From a virus: DNA of 64,000 nucleotides. Numbering within the stretch: position 1 is the stretch's first letter; the number at the start of each line of letters is the position of its first letter. Made by a program: the position numbers and the translations under genes. The notes beneath the pieces are model-generated. The model worked only from the letters and a program-made list of their open reading frames with translations. It had not been told where the DNA came from and did not search any database. Below are positions 6,379 to 17,560 of this stretch, one piece after another. The DNA is taken from the IMG/VR virus record IMGVR_UViG_3300019458_000027, positions 25,191 to 89,190 of that record. One strand, written 5' to 3'.

Positions 6379-7398
6379 TTAAGGACCGACTTTCTTGATC
6401 TTGCCCTGGAACGCCTCCGACGTAAGCTGGAGAACGCTAAATTCCAAGACGATAGTTCTGTAAGCCGTCTGGAGCAACGCCAAATCAATGCTCGACAGAG
6501 GCATGAGATCCACCATCTGAATTGCGTTACCATCTTCCAACACCGTCTTGTCGTCCAAGACTAGCACGAAGTCTTCACTAGACCCGTCAGGAACGATGTA
6601 ACGTGAACCAACCACGTCCACAATCCCATAAGGGCTGACCCAACGAGTTACGCTGATACCCGACGGAATGTCGGCCAGCGTACCCGCTCCCGCCTGGAAC
6701 AGGCGATAGAACGAGGTGAAAATCAACTCGTTGAACTTCTGCAAGTCTCTATAGGACATGACCACTAGCTGCGGCTTACCACCCTTCGCAACGATTTCTC
6801 GTTCCGTAGTCGTGATATCCGACAAAGCCAAGGCCGCACCAGCGTTATCCTTAACGTTGGAAGTAACCTGAGCATTGAGACCATCAAACATCAGAGGATT
6901 AACAGCAGAATCCCCGTTGATGATCGCCCATTCCTCCATCAAAGCAACGTTGAGCATCTTCACCTTGATTTGGTGCTTTTTGATATCGGTGTAAGTACCA
7001 CCGGCCATCTGTTCGAAGAACGAGACGGTAACAACATCTCCAAGTGAAGTATACGGTGCGCTCTTAAACTTGTACGTCGGCTGAACCGCATCCGGCAACC
7101 CACCCTTCGGGAAGAACCCTTGATCCGGAGAAGTACCACCAAGAAACAAGTGGCCGCTGGACAGTGCTCCAGTAGAAGAAACTGGGGTCAACTGATACCA
7201 TGCGTGAGCTTTACCATTTCCAGGGATTCTGTTCAGGCGGTTGCGTAACGGAGTGTCCGTAGGAGCCATGATAGCCATCTCGGCCTGCAAGTCCTCACGG
7301 ACCAACAGTAACCCCGACACGTCAGTAGACGAAATCGCCTTCTGGATATCGTTGATAGCTTGCTCCACAACCTGCGCATTATACATTATAGAATACAC
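6379..7398 (-). CDS. Major capsid protein (HK97 fold)
   Basis: 339 aa after protease/scaffold; TPLRNRLNRIPG, EEWAIINGDS...FDGL, YGIVDVVGSRYI. Confidence 0.85.
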   Translation of the reverse strand: MYSIMYNAQVVEQAINDIQKAISSTDVSGLLLVREDLQAEMAIMAPTDTPLRNRLNRIPGNGKAHAWYQLTPVSSTGALSSGHLFLGGTSPDQGFFPKGGLPDAVQPTYKFKSAPYTSLGDVVTVSFFEQMAGGTYTDIKKHQIKVKMLNVALMEEWAIINGDSAVNPLMFDGLNAQVTSNVKDNAGAALALSDITTTEREIVAKGGKPQLVVMSYRDLQKFNELIFTSFYRLFQAGAGTLADIPSGISVTRWVSPYGIVDVVGSRYIVPDGSSEDFVLVLDDKTVLEDGNAIQMVDLMPLSSIDLALLQTAYRTIVLEFSVLQLTSEAFQGKIKKVGP

Positions 7399-7436: not shown

Positions 7437-9179
7437 TTAGGAAACCTTGCGAACGTCGTATTTTGAACTAAACATCTTGTTCAAAACGCCATCACGCTTA
7501 ATTTCCTGTTCTTTCGTGAGAGGTTTGCCAGTCGCTTTCGCAACTTCAACAAACGCACGAACTTCTTCGACTTCCTTTGCCAGTTCACTTTCGGGAGTCT
7601 CAGGTCCGCCAAAAGTCTTCTCGACCTTTGTAAACTTCCTTGGCAACGCCTTCTCATCAACTTCTTTCAGCCTCTTTTCGAGAGTCTGAATCCTCTCTTC
7701 TAACTTCCGAACGACCTTCTCGGTGCGGTTCGGCGATTCAGATTTCTGAGTCTCGTCTTTATCACCCTTATCATTGGTCTCGTCTTTCTTTTCCAATGTA
7801 TTGGATGCCTTACGAGTCCCATTATCATCGTCCTGTCCATCAACACTCTTTTTGGCTTTTTTCACAGGTGCGGCGGGATCTTCCTGAGTTTTCAGGTCCC
7901 CCTCGTCAGGGATGGCCTTCATTGTTTCCTCACTCTTATCCTCGTCGTCCTTTTCATCCCCATCGTGAGTTTTAGTAACTTTGACGGGGCCTTTTGCCGG
8001 GTATGCGCCCTTGGAGGGTTGAGTCTCTAGGTCTGACGTAGCGGGATCAGCCGCCTTCACAGGCCCCTTAGCGGGGTAAGCCCCTTCGGGCTTCTGTGTC
8101 TCAACGTCATCGGCCGCCCCCGGAGCGGATGGGGCTGATTCTCCAACCTTTGGGTTGGTATCAGCATCCGTCGGAGTCTCTTTTGCGCCGGGCTTAGGGG
8201 AGTGTGCTCCCTCGTAAGCCTTTTCAAGACCAACAACCTTCTCCACCAAAGCGGTTACCGTTCCAGCTAGCTCTTTGAGGAGCTTGATTGCTTCACCAGG
8301 CATTTCATTATCACCCCCATTTATACAGTATAAACACTTGTCGGCATTATGGGCCGATCCAAGTATTGCAGTTGCTTTCTCATGTACTTCCGATTTTTCT
8401 ATATCAGAAAGCCCTAAACCATCGATACTGTCCAGAGTGTTAAAAGCATGAACTTTATCGGGAAGGGGAACTCGTTTTTCAATGACTATGGTTCCATCCT
8501 CCTTGGTATACTTTCTTATAACACCCCAGGCACTTTCAGTAAGAGATTGTAGCTCGTCCTTATCCAAAACTTTCTTAGCTAAGGAATCCGCTTTTTCTCG
8601 GTGGATTTGTACTTCTTTGGCCAAAGGATCCTCTACCTCGACCATCAAAACTTTCTTTAAATCCTCTACTATTTGAGTTTGGTACAAGAGTCCATCAGAA
8701 GCTCTTTTTACTAACTCAAAAGCACAAGATGGATTAGCGGGGTTATCAACCAATGATAACTCATTCAGTCGATATTTTGTGATCTCCGTAACCTGCCTAT
8801 CTTGTTTAGTACCAGAATCCTTGACGATTTTAACGGTCTTGTTCATCGTCTGTCCACCGATGGAAAAACCAGTGAGGGTTCCGTCCAGAATCTTCTCCCA
8901 GGTATCTTTTGCGCCTTTGGAGACTTTTGCCGTAACCCAAACCTTACGAGAATCATCATCAGGGATAATCTCAATAGCTTTGCCAACGGCCTTGGGTTCG
9001 TGCATTTCACGGATATTCCCAGGCCAATCAGCGAAAGCTTCTTTGGAGGCCTCGTAGCCAACGATCTCGGACTGTTTGTCAATGTCCTCCGTCGTGGCCC
9101 ACCCTCCAACCGTCATTCGCTCTTTGTCTACCTTCTCGATAGGAGCGAATAATCGTATATCATTCTTAGCTTCACTCAT
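7437..9179 (-). CDS. Prohead protease (XkdF/HK97-like) fused to scaffold region
   Basis: GWATTEDIDKQSEIV, IREMH, TWEKILDGTLTGFSIGG, ELSLVDNPANP; low-complexity charged and coiled-coil C-terminal half. Confidence 0.85.
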   Translation of the reverse strand: MSEAKNDIRLFAPIEKVDKERMTVGGWATTEDIDKQSEIVGYEASKEAFADWPGNIREMHEPKAVGKAIEIIPDDDSRKVWVTAKVSKGAKDTWEKILDGTLTGFSIGGQTMNKTVKIVKDSGTKQDRQVTEITKYRLNELSLVDNPANPSCAFELVKRASDGLLYQTQIVEDLKKVLMVEVEDPLAKEVQIHREKADSLAKKVLDKDELQSLTESAWGVIRKYTKEDGTIVIEKRVPLPDKVHAFNTLDSIDGLGLSDIEKSEVHEKATAILGSAHNADKCLYCINGGDNEMPGEAIKLLKELAGTVTALVEKVVGLEKAYEGAHSPKPGAKETPTDADTNPKVGESAPSAPGAADDVETQKPEGAYPAKGPVKAADPATSDLETQPSKGAYPAKGPVKVTKTHDGDEKDDEDKSEETMKAIPDEGDLKTQEDPAAPVKKAKKSVDGQDDDNGTRKASNTLEKKDETNDKGDKDETQKSESPNRTEKVVRKLEERIQTLEKRLKEVDEKALPRKFTKVEKTFGGPETPESELAKEVEEVRAFVEVAKATGKPLTKEQEIKRDGVLNKMFSSKYDVRKVS

Positions 9180-9496: not shown

Positions 9497-9802
9497 TTAC
9501 ATTACCTTAATCCACGTTCTTGTTTTAGAATCATAAATGGAGGTAGCTTTGTAGTTTGTTGGTCTTGTAACCCCGCCTCCACGTGCCTTCTCTTGAAACA
9601 TACCAAATTTCTTGGGGTCGTCAACCTTAAACTCCATATAGCCCCCATCCTCCATATGCACCCTGCCAGTATGGGTTCCAGTCCGCTCCATTCTAGTACC
9701 ACGAACGTCGGTCATTTGCTTCTTGGTCATTGTTTTGTTGTGCCGATATTGACCAGGTTTTGCCGACATGGATTGTGGTCTGTGAACTTCCCGCCGTGCC
9801 AT
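9497..9802 (-). CDS. Basic hypothetical protein
   Basis: 101 aa, TAATG coupling with MuF gene. Confidence 0.6.
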   Translation of the reverse strand: MARREVHRPQSMSAKPGQYRHNKTMTKKQMTDVRGTRMERTGTHTGRVHMEDGGYMEFKVDDPKKFGMFQEKARGGGVTRPTNYKATSIYDSKTRTWIKVM

Positions 9803-11679
9803 TACTTTTTCTCCCTGAAATTAAGATGATATTTTACATTACCAATCTGGGAATAATTGTCTTTCGCTTCGGGATCAACCTCAAGATTGTCTACACGACC
9901 CACTTGTTTGCTACCATCCTTGAATCTAAGTTCTGCGTTACCGTCATCCAGTCGGATTACAGCATCTTGATCTAAGACTCTGAAAGCTATGTTTTCCAAC
10001 CTGTCGGCATTTTCAGGACTAACACTTACAATAAAGCTAGTTTCTTCTTTCCCGCCCCAAACACCCTTTTGGCGAACTACATCATCAGAATATAATTTCA
10101 ATGATTGTTCCAGGTTGGCGGTTTTCCTAGCATTCTCTTCGGGAGTTAGATTTCCTCTCTCAGCCGACACTATAATCTTAGTTCCCGATCCCAAATGTTC
10201 TTTTACTCCACCAGATTCGGAGAACCGACCCGATTCATCCCTAGGATGAAGTTCCTCAATCCAACCTTTGGTCATTGACACCAATTTCTCGTACAATCCA
10301 CTAGTAGAAGGGAAGTAAACGGTAATAAGTTTTTCTTCAACCTTGGTTACTGGTTTAGTCTCATGGGTGTCAGGGTCGTAAATTCCAACTATCCATTCAG
10401 CTTTCACATGCGGGAGGGAGAAAGCCGAAGGTTCTCTCCCTGCTACGCTCAGAGCCAAATCCTCCTCAGCATTGGACTTGAAATAATCTTCGGGAATCTT
10501 GGCTACAACCGTAACTCCCTTTTCCCCTTCTGGAACGACCTCAGAATTGGTAGCATAAAAGGAAGCCCATACCTTGCTGGTAGTTACGAACACCTTATTG
10601 GCTCTATCTCCCGTATAAAAACTATCATCAAAATTTCTATACTTTCCTGAAACAATTCCCTCTTTTAAAATGGAGGCCGATCTTTCTAGGGTGGTGGAAT
10701 GATAAACTTCTACCTCACTGAATTTCCCCGTCTCGTCCCTTGGGTGCTGCGCTTCATCCCAAACTTTCATCATCTTTTCGGATTCATCATCTGGATGAGG
10801 GGCAGGTTCGAAAAGCTCACCACATCGGCAATTGGTAAGGCATTCGTTGGTTTGATACTCTGTAGCAAAGTGATCTAAAGTCATCCAAACGCCTTCGTTA
10901 CCTTCGCACCCATCACAAACCTTGTCGTCCTGGACCGTATGCCAATATCCACCCTCGTACTCGACTTCTCCCTCTTCGGTACTGGCGGCCTTGACCGATT
11001 CAGAAAACCCTAGGGAGAAAGCTCCCAATGCCGCCATAGCGTACATATCCAAACGGCTGAGCTTTTTGTCCATAACACCTTCAAGGGCTTCACTGTACGC
11101 TACTTCGTCGGGATATTCGCCGTCGATCACTCCGGCGAACTCAGCATAGAGATCGTTGTTAACAAAATTGTCGAATTTCTCTTGATGTTCCTCTATAAGA
11201 GATTCGATTTCTTCCTTATCTTCGGGGGAAAGCTCATCGTCGATCGGTTGCCCCGTCAATCCCTGTCCCCTCTCCTTACCAATTTGATAAAGACGGTCAA
11301 AAGAATTGGAGGCCGCTAAACTAAAAGCTAGAGCTAGCTCTGCTAAATGTTTCTGTACAATGCTTTTCTTCTCTGGTCGGTCGTCTGATTCAAATTCGGC
11401 CTTGGTAAACTTGCGAACTCCCTCTTCTGAGAGGATCGTTGCTTTAACTTTGTTCCATTCATCACGGAGCTTGTTATCAAGACCCTGCAAAGCACGATCA
11501 ATCTTTCTCTTTGCGTCTAGGGGAACGATTCGTCTCTTGAGGGCCTTTTGGATACCACCACTAAACTCGATGGCCTCTACCAACGGATATTGAGTAGTAG
11601 AGGTTATGTAGGTTACCGAGTCGTTAAACTCTTCCCTAAGTTTTTCAATCGGCGTTGGCTCATCAAGATAAATGCGCAT
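9802..11679 (-). CDS. MuF-like head morphogenesis protein with C-terminal ART-like and SAM-lyase-like domains
   Basis: WHTVQDDKVCDGC...NCRC MuF signature; two HPRD tags; YHSTT..SILKEGI/VFVTTS ART-like core; VSAERGNL...EET...DQDAV SAMase-like core. Confidence 0.8.
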   Translation of the reverse strand: MRIYLDEPTPIEKLREEFNDSVTYITSTTQYPLVEAIEFSGGIQKALKRRIVPLDAKRKIDRALQGLDNKLRDEWNKVKATILSEEGVRKFTKAEFESDDRPEKKSIVQKHLAELALAFSLAASNSFDRLYQIGKERGQGLTGQPIDDELSPEDKEEIESLIEEHQEKFDNFVNNDLYAEFAGVIDGEYPDEVAYSEALEGVMDKKLSRLDMYAMAALGAFSLGFSESVKAASTEEGEVEYEGGYWHTVQDDKVCDGCEGNEGVWMTLDHFATEYQTNECLTNCRCGELFEPAPHPDDESEKMMKVWDEAQHPRDETGKFSEVEVYHSTTLERSASILKEGIVSGKYRNFDDSFYTGDRANKVFVTTSKVWASFYATNSEVVPEGEKGVTVVAKIPEDYFKSNAEEDLALSVAGREPSAFSLPHVKAEWIVGIYDPDTHETKPVTKVEEKLITVYFPSTSGLYEKLVSMTKGWIEELHPRDESGRFSESGGVKEHLGSGTKIIVSAERGNLTPEENARKTANLEQSLKLYSDDVVRQKGVWGGKEETSFIVSVSPENADRLENIAFRVLDQDAVIRLDDGNAELRFKDGSKQVGRVDNLEVDPEAKDNYSQIGNVKYHLNFREKK

Positions 11680-12791
11680 TACTTTTTCTTTTCGGGTTTG
11701 TCTTCTATTCCTGATTGAACAATCATGTGCCGTCTAGCACCCTCATAATCACGCCCTTCAAACCCTGTCCTACGGGCTAGATCAACTACTTTCTTTTCGT
11801 AAACCTTCATGTGGCGATCCGTTTCCTGCTTTACCTTCTCATCGCCTTTTGGAAGACCAGCAATCGAGTCCGCTAAATAACGGCCATAATTAGACGCCAT
11901 AAACTCGGCTGCTTTGTCTTCGGCGGCTGTTCCCCTCCCTGCATAGCGTTCTCCTACAGCAGACTCTACAGCTTGGTCGTGTTGTTTATCTCGCTCAGTA
12001 GCCGTCCCATAATAACCCCACTTGGATGGTCCACCATCGGGTTCACGACTCTCGAATCGACCTCGACTAGGCTCTTCTTTTGAACCGCCTGATCCTTCAC
12101 CGAATTTTCCACTGGCATCCCGTGGGTGCTTACTTTCGTCCCACTCCTTACGAAGGTCGGCTAATTTCTTCATAGTGCTATCAATGAGACCCTTTTTCTC
12201 TTTCCGATCTTCTAGGTGTTGCTCGGCCATCATATAAAGAGCATCGGCCATATTCTCCCGCATTTCAGGATCATTTATGCTCATATCACGGATTTTGTCC
12301 ATAGCCAATTCAGCAACTTCTCTTAGAGACCACTCATCCCTTTCGGCTTCCTCCTGCTCTTCGTCGGATAAGTAAGGGAGAGCATTTTCTTTATCATCAT
12401 AGATTGAGTTCGCCAGGTTTTCCTGGGCTACTTCATATAATTCTTTGTCGCCAGGAATCTCGAATCCAGAAGCCACCGCTCTTTGAACGGCCTTTGCGGC
12501 GTCATCCTCAGGGGACCCAGGTTTCCCTTTAAAATAAGGTTGTTCTAGCCACTTTCTAGCTACCCTCATAGAGGTAGCCGCTCTCGCTCCCGTAGCTGCC
12601 CGTTCTTGACTTGGGGTTCTGCCTGACGGTTTCGCCCCACCCGTACCCTCACCAAATTTCCCACCCTCTCCACGGGGGTGCTTGGATTCGTCCCACTCGC
12701 CCTTATTAAGGTCTTGGTTGGGAATCTCGATTTCAGTTCTCTTTGCTACGGGACCAAAGGGATCTTTTAAAATTGCATATCTCTTTCCCAT
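11679..12791 (-). CDS. HPR-tag multi-module putative head cargo protein
   Basis: Start set at MGKRY (AAGGAGG RBS); two EWDESKHPR tags; WGYYGT...GRYLAD domain; lies between portal and MuF. Confidence 0.7.
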   Translation of the reverse strand: MGKRYAILKDPFGPVAKRTEIEIPNQDLNKGEWDESKHPRGEGGKFGEGTGGAKPSGRTPSQERAATGARAATSMRVARKWLEQPYFKGKPGSPEDDAAKAVQRAVASGFEIPGDKELYEVAQENLANSIYDDKENALPYLSDEEQEEAERDEWSLREVAELAMDKIRDMSINDPEMRENMADALYMMAEQHLEDRKEKKGLIDSTMKKLADLRKEWDESKHPRDASGKFGEGSGGSKEEPSRGRFESREPDGGPSKWGYYGTATERDKQHDQAVESAVGERYAGRGTAAEDKAAEFMASNYGRYLADSIAGLPKGDEKVKQETDRHMKVYEKKVVDLARRTGFEGRDYEGARRHMIVQSGIEDKPEKKK

Positions 12792-12801
12792 TATTCCTCC
12801 T

Positions 12802-14604
12802 TTACTTATCCTGAAATCCAATTAACAAGGTTGCTTGAACACCTTGATCTTGGAGGGACTTCACGGTGTTGTGTAGAAGTTGGTATTGTTTCAAGACAGG
12901 TTTCCTTCTGTTTACCACAATTTTTACCCTCTTCTCTTTCAAAACTTCCTCTTCCTCGGTTTCAGGAGGGACCTCTTCTTCCTCAACCACAGGTACTTCC
13001 TCTTCCCCAATAGGTTTACCATTAGGTCCCATTTTGGGTGGTTCTGGAGGAGCTTCTCCTACAGGTGCAGGAGGTTCAACAGGAAGCTTGCTCAAACCTT
13101 CAACAGGAATTAAACCACTAGCGGTTTCAATGACCGGAACGTCGCCGCCGTCAATCGGTTTCAGTCCCAATTTTTGCCTTCTATCGTTTCTAGAAATGAC
13201 ACCAGACTTAATATCCTGAATATCAATAGTTGATTCTCTCGATGGGTCTCCCAAGTCGATATCCAGCCACTCGAATTTCACATCTCGGTAAGAGAACTCA
13301 GACTTTACGATCTCTCTGTTGTAGTGTTCCTCTAATAGGGTTAAAAGAGATTGAACACCACGGGCCTTGGACAATTTCTCTTGGACCTGCGCTACCCCAC
13401 CCCCACCAAGACCCCTGGAGGAATCCATGAATCCTAAATCCTGCGGAGAAATACCGTATGCAGCGCATTTCACTCCCATTGTCCATTTCAGGTAATCGAT
13501 CAACTGCATCTCTTTGTTCGTTCTGGTTGACATTGGAATAAACTTTGGGTCCTCAGAACCAGAAATGAACATCATGCGGTGCTGGCCACCCCTACCCTGC
13601 ACTTCGTTCTCCCACATAGCACGGAAGGAATCCAACTGATCGGAGTCCACGCCCTTTCCAAGATCAAATACCCCAGGGGGAACGTTGGAGTGCTTAAAGT
13701 AGTCAATTTGGTATTCGTCGGCAAACAAGGAAGCCGTGATAATGTATGCCGCCACTTCCAATGGGGACATTCCGTAACCACTCTGTTGCGGATTCTCCAT
13801 AATGTAGATAAGTTCTTCGGAACTAAACTCGGCCCGATTTATTCCCATTTGCTCCCAAACAAAAGCGGGTTCAGGTGGGAGTGGGGCCGTCATGTCTTCG
13901 TTTCGATAAATCTTGACTTCATGCCCTGGAATGGTGTATAACTCAGCAAGTTTACCCGTAGCCGACCAGTTCTTTACGAGAACCCCCGAATCGTAAATTA
14001 AAAGATCATCTAGGATTTTCTCCTGCAAAGTCCTCCATGTCCTATCCGTACTGTTAGGGCATTCAAAGATTCTTTTGATATCGTGCCTGTGGGATTCAGC
14101 TTCTTGCTTAATTCTTCGTTTGAGGGATTGAATATACCACCTAATTATGGGCTTTTTATCGGCTTCTGGACCTTTCATAATTCTGACTAAGTTTTTACCC
14201 ATCTCGGTAACAAGAACCTGATCTAAAGCTTCGGAAATGAACTCTTCTTTCCCAGTGCTATACGGTTGCAAATTCGAGATGGCTAACTCTTCAAAACGGT
14301 CTAACTCCGCTTCCTGATTCTCGGTATCGGGAACAATATCCCACTTAATCTGACTGATATAAGACTTAATAGCTCTTCGAATTGCCCACGTGATAGGATC
14401 AGTATTTGCTAGTCTACCCAAAGTGGCGGTAGATAGCGTGAACATCTTTTGCTGTTTCTTGTTGATGGTGGTATTCACCAAACGGTACATACCCTTCCTG
14501 GGTTCAGGGTCAGGGAGATTCCCACGATCTCTTTTATAGATATCGTCCCGTTTGAAGTCCGTGGGGAGGGTTAAATCCTCCATCTTGAAGTCTTTAAATG
14601 GCAT
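12802..14604 (-). CDS. Portal protein
   Basis: 600 aa; DDLLIYDSG, YGMSPLEVAA, NVPPGVFDL, AYGISPQDLG, SRNDRRQKLGLKPIDGGD; Pro/Glu-rich tail. Confidence 0.85.
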   Translation of the reverse strand: MPFKDFKMEDLTLPTDFKRDDIYKRDRGNLPDPEPRKGMYRLVNTTINKKQQKMFTLSTATLGRLANTDPITWAIRRAIKSYISQIKWDIVPDTENQEAELDRFEELAISNLQPYSTGKEEFISEALDQVLVTEMGKNLVRIMKGPEADKKPIIRWYIQSLKRRIKQEAESHRHDIKRIFECPNSTDRTWRTLQEKILDDLLIYDSGVLVKNWSATGKLAELYTIPGHEVKIYRNEDMTAPLPPEPAFVWEQMGINRAEFSSEELIYIMENPQQSGYGMSPLEVAAYIITASLFADEYQIDYFKHSNVPPGVFDLGKGVDSDQLDSFRAMWENEVQGRGGQHRMMFISGSEDPKFIPMSTRTNKEMQLIDYLKWTMGVKCAAYGISPQDLGFMDSSRGLGGGGVAQVQEKLSKARGVQSLLTLLEEHYNREIVKSEFSYRDVKFEWLDIDLGDPSRESTIDIQDIKSGVISRNDRRQKLGLKPIDGGDVPVIETASGLIPVEGLSKLPVEPPAPVGEAPPEPPKMGPNGKPIGEEEVPVVEEEEVPPETEEEEVLKEKRVKIVVNRRKPVLKQYQLLHNTVKSLQDQGVQATLLIGFQDK

Positions 14605-14605
14605 A

Positions 14606-15019
14606 TTATTTTTCCTCTACTAAAGCTCTTGTAATCCCCACCACAACTTGGTGTTCTATTTTCCCCAACTGTTTGCAGAGAAACTCTTTACTATTTTTGT
14701 CCGAAACGTAAGAATTGATCGTGTCTGTTATAGATTCCATTAGAAGGTTAAGACGAGCATGAACTAATTCATGCACAACAGTATTCTCTGTCTCGTTTGG
14801 CTCTTCCTTCAAATACTTCTCATTAATGTAAATCTCGACTTCTTGTTTTTCTTCCGAGGTGATCACCTGGGCGTAGTCGTGGGTTGTGCCATCGTCGTGT
14901 TGCAAATCCTCCATATCCTCAGGTTTTACAATATGAACTATGTACTTATAATTGCCGATTCCCAGTCTGTTTGCCCACGTCTTTACTGATTCTGTCAACT
15001 TGGCTTCTCGCTTGGTCAT
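14606..15019 (-). CDS. Putative zincin-like metallopeptidase
   Basis: VVHELVH (HExxH) after short beta strands. Confidence 0.55.
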   Translation of the reverse strand: MTKREAKLTESVKTWANRLGIGNYKYIVHIVKPEDMEDLQHDDGTTHDYAQVITSEEKQEVEIYINEKYLKEEPNETENTVVHELVHARLNLLMESITDTINSYVSDKNSKEFLCKQLGKIEHQVVVGITRALVEEK

Positions 15020-15152
15020 CTCTGCGCCCTCTGTGATTGTCTGGTTTCTTAAGACACCATTGGCATACCATTAAAAAAATTTCCTTTCCGTGAGAACTGA
15101 CGGTCTTGGGAAAAAGAAGTGCTTTATTCATCTTGCACCGTGAGCACCTCAT
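14946..15152 (-). CDS. Small Zn-finger protein
   Basis: CSRC...CQWC; overlaps next gene by 74 nt. Confidence 0.45.
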   Translation of the reverse strand: MRCSRCKMNKALLFPKTVSSHGKEIFLMVCQWCLKKPDNHRGRRDDQARSQVDRISKDVGKQTGNRQL

Positions 15153-15355
15153 CCTAAGGTTACCTCTCCATCCACAAACTTCGGCGGTTTTATATTCTTG
15201 AACAAAGGCGGGGTTTCTTTAATTTTCTTAAATTTGCCCCCACACTTACAATCTACAATGGGTTCGGCAACTTTATATCTGCCTACAATTCCAAAGGCGG
15301 TCGTAACCTTCTTCTTACATTTAGTGCACTTAACCATATACACCATGTAAGACAT
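15149..15355 (-). CDS. Small Zn-ribbon protein
   Basis: CTKC...CKCGG. Confidence 0.6.
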   Translation of the reverse strand: MSYMVYMVKCTKCKKKVTTAFGIVGRYKVAEPIVDCKCGGKFKKIKETPPLFKNIKPPKFVDGEVTLG

Positions 15356-15489
15356 TATTTCTTCCTCTTATAGTAATTAGTCGCAACTCGCAAAAACTGA
15401 GCTAACAATATCATTAGAACCAACGCCATAACCTGCTTAGCAACGCTTACCATTTCCATCACAAGCATCAACAGCATCATAAGATCCAT
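15355..15489 (-). CDS. 44 aa hydrophobic Met-rich peptide
   Basis: MDLMMLLMLVMEMVSVAKQVMALVLMILLAQFLRVATNYYKRKK; fills gap exactly. Confidence 0.4.
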   Translation of the reverse strand: MDLMMLLMLVMEMVSVAKQVMALVLMILLAQFLRVATNYYKRKK

Positions 15490-15500
15490 TCTATCCCTCC

Positions 15501-16520
15501 TTAACGAAATGCGTCGGGTTCTGGAGTGGCCTGGTAATACGTGCCAACTCTGTAACTATCAGACACCATTCCCATACCAGCAGGAGGGGTCCTGTGCGGG
15601 TTCTTGGTGGGTTCTTGGTGCTTCTGACCAAAAGCAACGTCCCCCCGATGGGGTTCCTTGGTATCCTCTTTGACTTTTTTTGGTGTCGGGGGACCACCCT
15701 GAGTTTTGGGAGCTTTCGTCGCCTCTCGATTTCTCGGAAGGGCTTCTCCAAGAGTTTCCCTAGACGGTTCCCACACTAGAGAATCTGCTTTTTCGGTCTT
15801 CGGTTTATCTTTTGGTTCTCTTTGAGCGATCATACGTTGTACGGCGTCCGACTGACCCCCATGATATTTTCCATCGCCAAGAATGTAACCCCCGTCTACT
15901 ATATCGTCGGGGTCAAGATCGGCGTTATTGACCACATCTCCATGATGAAGGGCTTTGGGATCGGCGTAAATAGTTCCGTCTTTCATCTTTATAGCGTAAC
16001 TATGACGACCAATTCCACTCCACTTTGGGTCTTTGGGGTCAAAACGATATTGGGAAGCTCCACCACCTACCCCAGATTCCGTAAATTTCCCACTTTCGTC
16101 TCTTGGGTGTTGCTCCTCTTCGAAAGCTTTATTCATTCTTAATCTTCTATCTCTCCGAAGGATATACTTCAAATCCTCCAGAGGAATTATAGCTTCGCTT
16201 TGCTCTTCCCCTTCAATATCTATCGGAAGCACCATAAAGACCGCTCCCTCGTCATTCATTCGGGTGTAAACCAGTCTATTTTTGTAGCCCCGATCATACC
16301 CTCTTTTCCCTAAAAGTCCTTTATTCCTACCCACACTATCCCGCAAGTGATGAAGGGTGAAGATACCGGGACCCCCGATGGCCATATCCTCTTGGAGATC
16401 CTCTCTGACCAGTCCCAGACCGGATACCTCGGCCGTGAGGATACCTTTGCTGGTCGTAAGATTATCTCTTAGTTTTTCGACTTGTCTTTTTAGAGCTAAG
16501 TTTCTTGCCAGGGTGTCCAC
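15501..16520 (-). CDS. Putative head cargo protein with capsid-like N-arm and HPR tag
   Basis: Start reassigned to GTG 16520 (AAGGAG 7 nt upstream); KGILTAEVSGLGLVREDLQEDMAI; AFEEEQHPRDESGKF. Confidence 0.7.
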   Translation of the reverse strand: MDTLARNLALKRQVEKLRDNLTTSKGILTAEVSGLGLVREDLQEDMAIGGPGIFTLHHLRDSVGRNKGLLGKRGYDRGYKNRLVYTRMNDEGAVFMVLPIDIEGEEQSEAIIPLEDLKYILRRDRRLRMNKAFEEEQHPRDESGKFTESGVGGGASQYRFDPKDPKWSGIGRHSYAIKMKDGTIYADPKALHHGDVVNNADLDPDDIVDGGYILGDGKYHGGQSDAVQRMIAQREPKDKPKTEKADSLVWEPSRETLGEALPRNREATKAPKTQGGPPTPKKVKEDTKEPHRGDVAFGQKHQEPTKNPHRTPPAGMGMVSDSYRVGTYYQATPEPDAFR

Positions 16521-16614
16521 GCTTAATCTCCTTAAGGCAAACGCAGGAAAAAGTAATACTAGCATCGCTAGAGCCGGTAATGGTTGTCTGGGGTTTCATA
16601 ATATAGTGTTTCAT
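16462..16614 (-). CDS. 50 aa basic peptide
   Basis: TAATG-coupled to HAD gene; not in ORF track. Confidence 0.35.
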   Translation of the reverse strand: MKHYIMKPQTTITGSSDASITFSCVCLKEIKRGHPGKKLSSKKTSRKTKR

Positions 16615-16946
16615 TAAACCCTACCCCCATGCTTTTTGACCTGTTCCAAAGCTTCTTCTCTGGTGGTGTATTTAACCGAATTAGTTCCGAAATAAATATC
16701 CTTACGAGGCATGCCATAAAGGACATGATGGTATGGAATCTTGTGCTTACTAAGCCACTGCTCAGTCTCCATCATGAGACTGGGGTCTCTGCTGGTGTAA
16801 AGTTCGATCTGATAATTCTTTAAGTGGAGGAGCTTGAGGAACTCTACTACCTCTTCTTTTGGAACCCGATCTTTCACCTCATCAAAAGCTGTAGATTTGG
16901 AAATTGGATTACAAAGAACGCCATCAAGGTCGATTGCGATTATCAC
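16614..16946 (-). CDS. HAD-superfamily phosphatase-like protein
   Basis: IDLDGVL (motif I), YTSR (motif II); motif IV DD replaced by DIYFGTN. Confidence 0.65.
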   Translation of the reverse strand: MIIAIDLDGVLCNPISKSTAFDEVKDRVPKEEVVEFLKLLHLKNYQIELYTSRDPSLMMETEQWLSKHKIPYHHVLYGMPRKDIYFGTNSVKYTTREEALEQVKKHGGRV

Positions 16947-17203
16947 AGTCTATGCCCTCCACGACTTTTTACCCTTGGTTTTAGCTTGCCTTTTTCCCGA
17001 ATCTTCCATTTCTTCTTGATCACAGTAGGAATGGTATCATCCATACGAGGATCATAAGTTAACAACCCGATCTTCTTTTTGCTGATAATAAGTAGAACAT
17101 TCCCACATTTTGGGCAACCGTTCAATGTAGACGTAATCGCCTTAGTGCCTTCTCTGATCTGAAAAAGCTGACCACAATTCACACATTCTGCCCAAAGATA
17201 CAT
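16943..17203 (-). CDS. Zn-ribbon protein with KWKIREKGK motif
   Basis: CVNC...CPKC; C-terminal KKKWKIREKGKL. Confidence 0.65.
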   Translation of the reverse strand: MYLWAECVNCGQLFQIREGTKAITSTLNGCPKCGNVLLIISKKKIGLLTYDPRMDDTIPTVIKKKWKIREKGKLKPRVKSRGGHRL

Positions 17204-17337
17204 TAGACCTCAGTGGTTTCTCCGAGCTTGGTTACTCGAATCCGTGGGTCGCTTTTCACCGATTTCTTGGCGTTCCCGTTATCTTTCAGAGAACGAACTT
17301 TCTTTTTAAGACTTGCGTACTTACGAAATCTCACCAT
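17203..17337 (-). CDS. 44 aa basic peptide
   Basis: Fills gap, stop coupled to next ATG; not in ORF track. Confidence 0.35.
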   Translation of the reverse strand: MVRFRKYASLKKKVRSLKDNGNAKKSVKSDPRIRVTKLGETTEV

Positions 17338-17560
17338 TTTTACATACCTCACATTGTTCTGGTTTCACTAGATTGATCATAGCGGGTTGACCCGCAAATT
17401 TCTTAAACACCAAGGCCCGAACTTCCTTGTCCTCTTCGAAGTGCTGCTTACAAATGGGAAAGTATTTGAAATTTCCTACAGATTGTTTCATGATCGTACT
17501 ACCTTTAAAATTTGGATAATGGTCCATGTTAACCCTCCCGCACCCAGGGCAATTTTCCAT
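17321..17560 (-). CDS. Small Cys-containing protein (start possibly 17527)
   Basis: CPGC, CKQH, CEVC. Confidence 0.5.
   Translation of the reverse strand: MENCPGCGRVNMDHYPNFKGSTIMKQSVGNFKYFPICKQHFEEDKEVRALVFKKFAGQPAMINLVKPEQCEVCKNGEIS

Follow-up and report, generated by a model that had tools for sequence, protein, structure and literature searches.

A copy of the major capsid protein N-terminus on non-capsid proteins of an uncultured phage group: a candidate portable signal for procapsid incorporation and cleavage

How a phage chooses the proteins that are enclosed in its head and injected with its DNA is understood for few models, among them the capsid targeting sequence (CTS) of T4, the Dar proteins of P1, and MuF/gp7. 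The T4 CTS is a short peptide on the non-capsid proteins IPI-III and Alt that directs them into the prohead; the prohead protease removes it, and the cargo is ejected with the DNA. The CTS is about 10 amino acids long and strictly N-terminal, is not a copy of the N-terminus of the major capsid protein (MCP) gp23, and ends in an L/I-x-E site that is cut after Glu by gp21. In the procapsids of 80alpha and SPP1, the scaffolding protein binds the N-terminal helix and N-arm of the MCP, and after release of the scaffold the N-arm contacts other subunits and capsomers (PMC5744158, PMC6813328). Here we analyse a stretch of 64,000 nucleotides (the window), positions 25191-89190 of the 104,918-bp uncultured virus record IMGVR_UViG_3300019458_000027 (genome G000), in which a non-capsid protein of 339 residues, protein X (15501-16520), begins with a copy of the N-terminal part of the phage's own MCP. 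The same module, which consists of a leader helix, a near-invariant Lys and an N-arm peptide, recurs in related phages on small proteins and on proteins with enzyme domains, and we propose that it may direct its carriers into the procapsid. All genes discussed here lie on the minus strand; their coordinates are listed in ascending order through the window, and transcription runs in the opposite direction.

BLASTP aligned X with the MCP over 27 residues without gaps, 17 of which are identical (E 1e-6). The match pairs X 25-51 (16368-16448; K-GILTAE-VSGLGLVREDL-QEDMAIGGP) with MCP 16-42 (7261-7341), corresponding to X 40-66 and MCP 20-46 in the numbering of the long open reading frames (ORFs). 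The longest ORF of X opens at an ATG at 16565. We set the start at the GTG at 16520, because it sits 7 nucleotides after an AAGGAG ribosome-binding site and because the protein then begins with M-D-T-L-A-R, resembling the M-D-x-I-A-R of its homologues. The MCP starts at the ATG at 7386, after GGGGGTG, and reads MYNAQ, the same as in its homologues. When the first 50 residues of the MCP were compared with 1161 six-frame ORFs of at least 40 residues from the whole 104,918-bp genome, X was the sole match (E 1.8e-8), and the next ORF had an E-value of 1.2. The remainder of X, beyond residue 51, showed no similarity to the MCP by BLASTP, and searches of Pfam and PHROGs gave no match for X, for its middle domain or for its small relatives described below; X as an MCP paralogue or a second HK97-fold MCP is ruled out by these results. 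The first-pass annotation of this DNA, in which the resemblance was originally noticed, had counted 16 identities between two 24-residue strings at approximate coordinates and had described the rest of X as unrelated to the MCP. Count, positions and the lack of further similarity all agree with the alignment. A leader of 20-25 residues ending in Lys, which it had assigned to both proteins, fits X (24 residues, then Lys25) and is slightly long for the MCP (15 residues, then Lys16).

The two copies were also compared at the nucleotide level. Among the 17 shared residues are 16 with degenerate codons, and the codon is identical at 3 of these 16; over the whole segment, 46 of the 81 nucleotides are identical. 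Synonymous sites are saturated, and it is therefore the peptide, not the DNA, that has been conserved, the similarity being old and not the result of a recent DNA copy. The mimicry of the MCP by X is ancient and is held by selection on the peptide. A relic of recent gene conversion was considered as well and is ruled out by the codon comparison.

The template of the mimic is the N-terminal part of the MCP (7261-7386), with a leader helix at 4-17, Lys16 and the N-arm peptide at 16-42. The MCP itself (6379-7386; 335 residues) has an HK97 fold and matches Pfam SU10_MCP (6.8e-13). In an alignment of 39 homologues that are 51-88% identical to this MCP, Lys16 and L28-V-R-E-D-L-Q34 are invariant and V23, G25 and L26 nearly so, and the segment ranks among the most conserved stretches of the protein. 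The AlphaFold2 (AF2) model of the MCP resembles the SPO1, SU10 and HK97 capsids and encapsulins. Its helix 4-17 is followed by an extended region ahead of the E-loop, with a predicted local distance difference test score (pLDDT) below 50 at residues 15-38, as would be expected of an HK97-fold N-arm that becomes ordered solely in the assembled shell. By analogy, the maturation cut of the MCP would fall at Lys16|Ala17. The capsid protein of phi12, which is HK97-like and has a delta domain, is cut during maturation at sites with K or R at P1, and K or R at P1 is likewise seen in the satellite homologue Ccm (PMC8569155).

The MCP alignment brought in 27 related viral loci, and these, together with further stretches of the same records, were scanned; the portal protein, used as a single-sequence query of viral contigs, retrieved nothing. 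N-arm copies in non-MCP genes, for which the first-pass annotation had proposed that other genomes be searched, were found in many of these relatives. Small carriers were a protein of about 93 residues in G001, one of about 90 residues in G002 and one of 76 residues in G004. The motif also lay at the C-terminus of a 158-residue open frame in G003 (the 137-residue protein P0155), inside a 404-residue protein in G008, at the C-terminus of a 695-residue protein in G010, and in the middle of an 830-residue protein in G011-G013. A profile of the small forms gathered 22 clusters of proteins of about 90 residues. We use the name mini-X, which is our own, for these small proteins that mimic the MCP N-terminus in this phage group. 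The leader helix of mini-X typically reads M-D-x-I-A-R-L-x-L-L-E-K-L-R-D-L and is followed by Lys, then by E-[IV]-x-S-x-P-V-x-G-L-E-L-V-R-E-D-L, and then by a Gly and a basic patch; the C-terminal half carries H-G-Q-K-H-x-Q-P and then T-P-P-A-G-M-G-x-x-S-D-S-P-x-V-G-x-Y-Y-Q-A-G-P-N.

Comparison of the two profiles with hhalign matched mini-X 11-42 to MCP 5-36 with a probability of 95.7% (E 9.3e-9). The match spans both families; the similarity is therefore a family-level one and includes part of the leader. The positions conserved in both the MCP and the mini-X families are K, V, G, L, L, R, E/D and L. AF2 modelling on the mini-X alignment gave a helix at residues 3-26 (pLDDT >90) followed by disorder, mirroring the MCP N-terminus. 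X and P0165 carry copies in which the similarity to the MCP runs past R-E-D-L-Q into (E/D)-(D/E)-M.

Protein X belongs to the mini-X family at both of its ends. Its residues 1-25 (16446-16520) align with the mini-X leader and are predicted to form an amphipathic helix ending at Lys25, homologous to the helix 3-26 of the mini-X model, and K25 is followed by GILTAE and VSGLGLVREDL. Its tail, residues 294-339 (15504-15641; GQKH-x-x-P followed by TPPAGMGMVSDSYRVG-x-YY), aligns with the C-terminal half of mini-X and has the family's GQKH-x-x-P and TPPAGMG-x-x-SDS-x-x-V. Residues 294-331 are 79% identical to P0002 and 47% identical to the mini-X of G002, and the family profile covers X 11-338. Gene order agrees with this assignment: in G001 and G002 the order is portal, SprT-like, mini-X, HAD-like, and X fills the same slot in G000. 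The portal gene, which served as synteny anchor, lies at 12802-14604 (Pfam Phage_portal 1.6e-30). Directly after it comes the gene for a SprT-like zincin-type protein of 137 residues with an HELVH motif (14606-15019; Pfam SprT-like 5.5e-5, under the curated cut-off), a position that is kept in G001-G004; as a conserved neighbour, this gene separates the portal gene from X or mini-X. On the upstream side, the slot is marked by a small HAD-like protein (16614-16946; weak sub-threshold match to Pfam HAD_PNKP). X is an expanded orthologue of mini-X with an insertion, in the same gene slot.

The insertion, about 240 residues long, separates the family leader and core (1-51) from the tail (294-339). 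Its first part, X 56-117, is shared with P0002 and includes a second leader-like repeat at 56-70 (16311-16355; L-x-x-LRD-x-VG-x-x-KG-LL). This repeat resembles X 14-28 and lacks the N-arm core; P0002 and P0152 have conserved it, and its Lys may serve as a second site of processing. An HPR tag at 133-146 (FEEEQHPRDESGKF; 16083-16124), with HPR at 138-140 (codon start 16109), is followed by a small middle domain at about 155-241 (15798-16058); both are present as first annotated. The tag is one of eight such motifs in five window proteins and fits the pattern W/F-x-E-x-x-H-P-R-x-x-x-G-K/R-F, which precedes an exchangeable domain; it is missing from the homologue P0152. The middle domain, for which no known fold was matched, is shared with P0152 and recurs in a 1162-residue protein of G003 that has a weak sub-threshold MuF match (L005 3134-6619) and in a 258-residue protein of G004. 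A V-W-E-P-S segment is also contained in the insertion.

A word-indexed search with X matched solely P0002 (228 residues), which has the common tail, two inner segments and the N-arm motif, and an exhaustive profile search found P0152 (261 residues), which is 43% identical to X across the middle domain and tail and has the same N-terminal module. P0150 (165 residues) is an intermediate form. With tblastn, X had no match in 50,697 phage records. The ESM Atlas gave no usable feature match for X; its own model is poor (pLDDT 0.48) and its structural neighbours are meaningless.

Among 46 non-MCP proteins of the family, 41 have a Lys 5-8 residues ahead of V-x-G-L-x-L-[VT]-R-E-D-L. The exceptions are truncated gene calls, P0161 (in which the Lys is present and the 14-residue prefix of the pattern does not fit), one degenerate copy and one tail-only protein. 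By analogy with the MCP, we propose Lys25 of X as the P1 residue of a maturation cleavage. With the Lys near-invariant and at a fixed distance from the core, it is conceivable that the module is a shared protease substrate only, cut on the same schedule as the MCP by the prohead protease or the SprT-like zincin and without any part in head targeting. Both genes are found in the same head module. The prohead protease (7437-9179; Pfam Peptidase_S78; phrog_9427 head maturation protease, 4e-41) is of the S78 type with a fused, charged, scaffold-like C-terminal region and may be a partner of the module, its processing enzyme, or both; the SprT-like protein is an alternative candidate processing protease for the Lys site or for the HPR or GQHDQ tags. 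In 80alpha, moreover, a short N-terminal motif for cleavage, without a proven targeting role, is common to ribosomal protein L27 and to the capsid and scaffolding proteins (PMC5744158). The conserved core of the module, however, lies 7-17 residues past the Lys and is more conserved than the flanks of the putative scissile bond, which would be odd for a plain cleavage site. Moreover, substrates of a prohead protease must enter the procapsid anyway, since that is where the enzyme acts. Cleavage without targeting is, in our judgement, an unlikely explanation of the module.

To survey the range of carriers, the family profile was run with hmmsearch against 1.84 billion representatives, in which 28 proteins were found at E <= 1e-3. 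With just 28 matches, the module is rare and does not extend beyond this phage group. One carrier of 533 residues (P0157) joins ChaB, the module, ParB_N and a T3-type S-adenosylmethionine (SAM) lyase in one chain, a cargo set that is spread over three HPR-tagged proteins in G000; a search with P0157 found nothing in viral contigs and ChaB-domain matches alone in metagenome contigs. ParB_N is combined with a C-terminal module in P0160, and with an internal module and a C-terminal domain of no known type in P0165. Three very basic proteins of 690-860 residues (P0158, P0164 and P0166) end in the module and a Lys/Arg tail. The large carriers of G010 (L039 3948-6032) and G011 (L040 3486-5975) are encoded immediately upstream of the portal. 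Depending on the carrier, the module is N-terminal, internal or C-terminal, and its genes sit in the head module, with X and mini-X upstream of the portal, between the SprT-like and HAD-like genes, and the 695- and 830-residue carriers directly upstream of the portal. In G000, the SAM lyase forms the C-terminal domain of a 625-residue protein with a weak sub-threshold MuF match (9802-11679), and it, ChaB and ParB_N all reside on HPR-tagged proteins. Judged by domain composition, a single set of cargo-type domains comes with HPR tags in G000 and with the MCP-like module in relatives. The carriers L039, L040, P0164 and P0166, all of 690-860 residues, are extremely rich in Lys and Arg and have hydrophobic stretches and internal repeats of about 150 residues; proteins of this kind may be internal core or ejection proteins.

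These architectures bear on a further explanation, in which X and mini-X are assembly regulators or decoys that compete with the MCP for scaffold or N-arm docking sites. Such proteins might time or limit polymerisation, act as caps, or occupy vacant N-arm sites round the portal vertex as a minor structural protein. The form of about 90 residues does hold little besides the mimic, a basic patch and a short tail, and the genes adjoin the portal. Competition for capsid-assembly interfaces exists elsewhere: SaPI1 CpmB, in the available excerpt of that work, competes with the scaffolding protein in capsid size determination (PMC5644958), and a satellite homologue of the capsid protein, Ccm, co-assembles into helper-phage capsids (PMC8569155). 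A regulatory function, on the other hand, leaves the fusions to ParB_N, ChaB, SAM lyase and proteins of 700-850 residues unexplained, and the absence of the module from three complete relatives speaks against a core structural role. A regulator, decoy or minor shell component is more plausible for the 90-residue forms than for the fusions, and as an account of X and mini-X we consider it improbable. If the small proteins do regulate assembly, they would, to our knowledge, be the first N-arm decoys encoded by a phage.

The MCP genes of several relatives are interrupted (L019 8884-10001 in G002; L015 7677-8649; L026 8833-10001). In G002, the gene is split right past the N-arm codons for LVREDLQAEIG by an insert of about 950 bp with a 238-residue ORF containing LAGLIDADG-like motifs, and the MCP homologues P0097 and P0101 contain an HNH domain (PF01844). 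These interruptions are probably mobile introns or inteins aimed at the most conserved MCP codons. The site of the G002 break makes duplication of MCP exon 1 via mobile introns a conceivable origin of the module, which might then be a functionless relic, if the resemblance is not due to chance altogether. Against either stand the E-value of 1.8e-8 within the genome, the divergence of the codons to saturation, and the conservation of the module across 41 or more proteins, in which constraint falls on the residues that are also constrained in the MCP; chance or a relic is effectively refuted, and we give it hardly any weight. Duplication is possible as the origin of the module; absence of function is not.

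We favour, with a probability of roughly 55%, the reading that the module serves as a portable signal, patterned on the MCP N-terminus, by which a protein is taken into the procapsid and cut at maturation, because the module is position-free, is carried by enzymes that are sensible solely if delivered with the DNA (a SAM lyase, for instance, would act against restriction), and has its genes in the head module. The helix and disordered peptide seen in both the MCP and the mini-X models fit a segment that becomes ordered on binding. A more specific form of the proposal, to which we give a little less than an even chance, is that the copy of about 45 residues would act in nature, and at any position in the chain, as a tag for encapsidation in the HK97-fold capsid of a tailed phage, with capture at the scaffold/shell interface, trimming at the Lys and delivery into the next host. 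That such a tag would load the SAM lyase, ParB-like and ChaB anti-defence enzymes, in parallel to MuF-linked cargo, is suggested by the fusions and is held equally tentatively.

The steps that we infer, from entry into the head and engagement of a partner to cutting at the Lys and delivery to the host, would proceed as follows. During assembly, the module peptide would engage the partner that the MCP N-terminus engages, which would be the scaffold portion of the fused protease or the surface of adjacent MCP subunits on which the N-arm docks, and the tagged protein would thereby become trapped inside the procapsid. Cleavage by the S78 prohead protease, on the C-terminal side of the Lys, would follow, as presumed for the MCP. 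Cargo downstream of the module, as in X and mini-X, would retain the N-arm peptide, and cargo upstream of it, as in the carriers of G003 and G010 and in P0160, would be freed from that peptide. The Lys/Arg-rich patch that frequently follows the motif would face the DNA. In X, the cargo would be the HPR-tagged small domain and the family tail; in its relatives it would be ParB_N, ChaB and SAM-lyase domains, acting on entry into the next host.

The first-pass annotation had proposed that X mimics the N-arm to co-assemble into the procapsid or to be tethered inside it, giving a second targeting route for cargo. The mimicry stands, and the fusions to ChaB, ParB_N and SAM lyase do look like the work of a cargo-targeting tag. 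The unit that is copied, however, is the leader helix, the near-invariant Lys and the N-arm peptide, not the N-arm alone, and X is no isolated invention but an expanded member of a conserved family of about 90 residues. The module also occupies internal and C-terminal positions, which makes literal co-assembly as a pseudo-subunit unlikely; co-assembly in the lattice is no likelier a function than a shared maturation-cleavage site. A second route for cargo is compatible with all findings and gains support, at the level of sequence, from the fusion architectures.

Several points nevertheless weigh against a procapsid signal. In tblastn searches of the same 50,697 phage records the MCP had no match, and no cultured relative is present there. 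Cleavage of the MCP at Lys16 is itself presumed by analogy. The MCP motif is almost invariant across genomes, leaving no scope for co-variation between a mimic and its own MCP. In a six-frame ORF search, the other HPR-tagged proteins of G000 lacked the module, which is therefore not the general cargo route. Three complete relatives (G005, G006 and G007), searched with the module and family profiles, have the motif in the MCP alone, with no non-MCP copy; the module is therefore dispensable and accessory, outside the core capsid machinery. Lastly, mini-X, the small form, has a basic patch and a tail that may indicate another function.

Other features of the window and of related genomes were recorded alongside. 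A 380-residue protein is encoded at 11679-12821, between the SAM-lyase protein and the portal. Around X lies a cluster of very small ORFs (44-86 residues; 15149-15489 and 16943-17560) with paired CxxC motifs, zinc-ribbon-like in appearance. Polyvalent proteins of G015 (L057 4935-10100) contain another repeated linker, K-H-x-[PE]-G-[QK]-H-D-Q-x-x-H-x-P-x-G, of which P0165 has three copies; the linker resembles the H-G-Q-K-H-x-Q-P that follows the module in mini-X and X, and such a pattern suggests that the HPR tag has a counterpart in another family of tags between domains. A weak, divergent candidate module (E 0.012), G-G-L-T-R-E-D-L followed by a basic patch, lies about 10 kb upstream of the MCP on a contig of a metagenome-assembled genome (MAG) labelled Gallionella sp. 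(L065 1-345). Two matching MAG-binned contigs bear conflicting labels, Gallionella and Chitinophagaceae, and therefore no host can be inferred.

If the module is a procapsid signal, a tag that copies the N-terminal propeptide and N-arm of the phage's own capsid protein would solve the choice of cargo in a new and very economical way, reusing an existing interface and protease site. It would follow the same logic as the T4 CTS, by way of coat-protein mimicry and not from the scaffold side, and would be directly usable in engineering, offering a short peptide to try for the loading of foreign proteins into HK97-fold shells. The rule Lys + x6 + V-x-G-L-x-L-V-R-E-D-L would also predict packaged anti-defence cargo in metagenomic phages.

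Packing of anti-defence enzymes is a theme shared with polyvalent or MuF-type cargo (PMC5512222) and with the Dar proteins in the P1 head (PMC12810830), and the domain types seen here, namely ParB_N, ChaB, SAM lyase and cassettes of a tag plus a domain, are in keeping with it. In the parts of these two papers available to us, packing is by MuF or portal association or by DarA-Hdf shell contacts, and an MCP-derived tag is not described; the available part of the polyvalent-protein paper makes no mention of the HPR motif or of an MCP-like tag (PMC5512222). The 80alpha system resembles the present one in that a non-capsid protein shares the N-terminal processing motif of the MCP, a motif also found on non-homologous proteins of other phages (PMC5744158). 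That motif is 13-14 residues long, is cut F|A by the host cysteine protease Prp, is wholly removed, and excludes the N-arm (PMC5744158). Here, in contrast, there is no F|A motif; a Lys is conserved, the conserved part belongs to the N-arm, downstream of the presumed cut, and an S78 protease is encoded by the phage itself. The part of the MCP that is copied, the N-terminal helix and N-arm, is the scaffold docking site in the HK97-fold procapsids of 80alpha and SPP1 (PMC5744158, PMC6813328). P22 is a further case of such an interaction between scaffold and N-arm.

The likeness to the T4 CTS lies in a tag on non-capsid proteins for which, by analogy, loading and trimming are proposed. The module differs from the CTS in being about 45 residues long and Lys-centred, in copying the MCP leader, Lys and N-arm, in occurring at N-terminal, internal and C-terminal positions, and in its association with an S78 protease, and it does not qualify as a CTS. 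Encapsulin cargo-loading peptides are likewise short and portable and load an HK97-fold shell, but they are C-terminal, are not derived from the shell and are not linked to proteolysis. Encapsulin shells are among the structural neighbours of the MCP described here; their cargo peptides are unrelated in sequence to the module. Engineered cargo has reportedly been loaded into P22 capsids through scaffold fusions, and in the engineered and natural cases known to us the cargo is on the scaffold side. In the phages described here, by comparison, the cargo would carry the coat-protein side of the interface.

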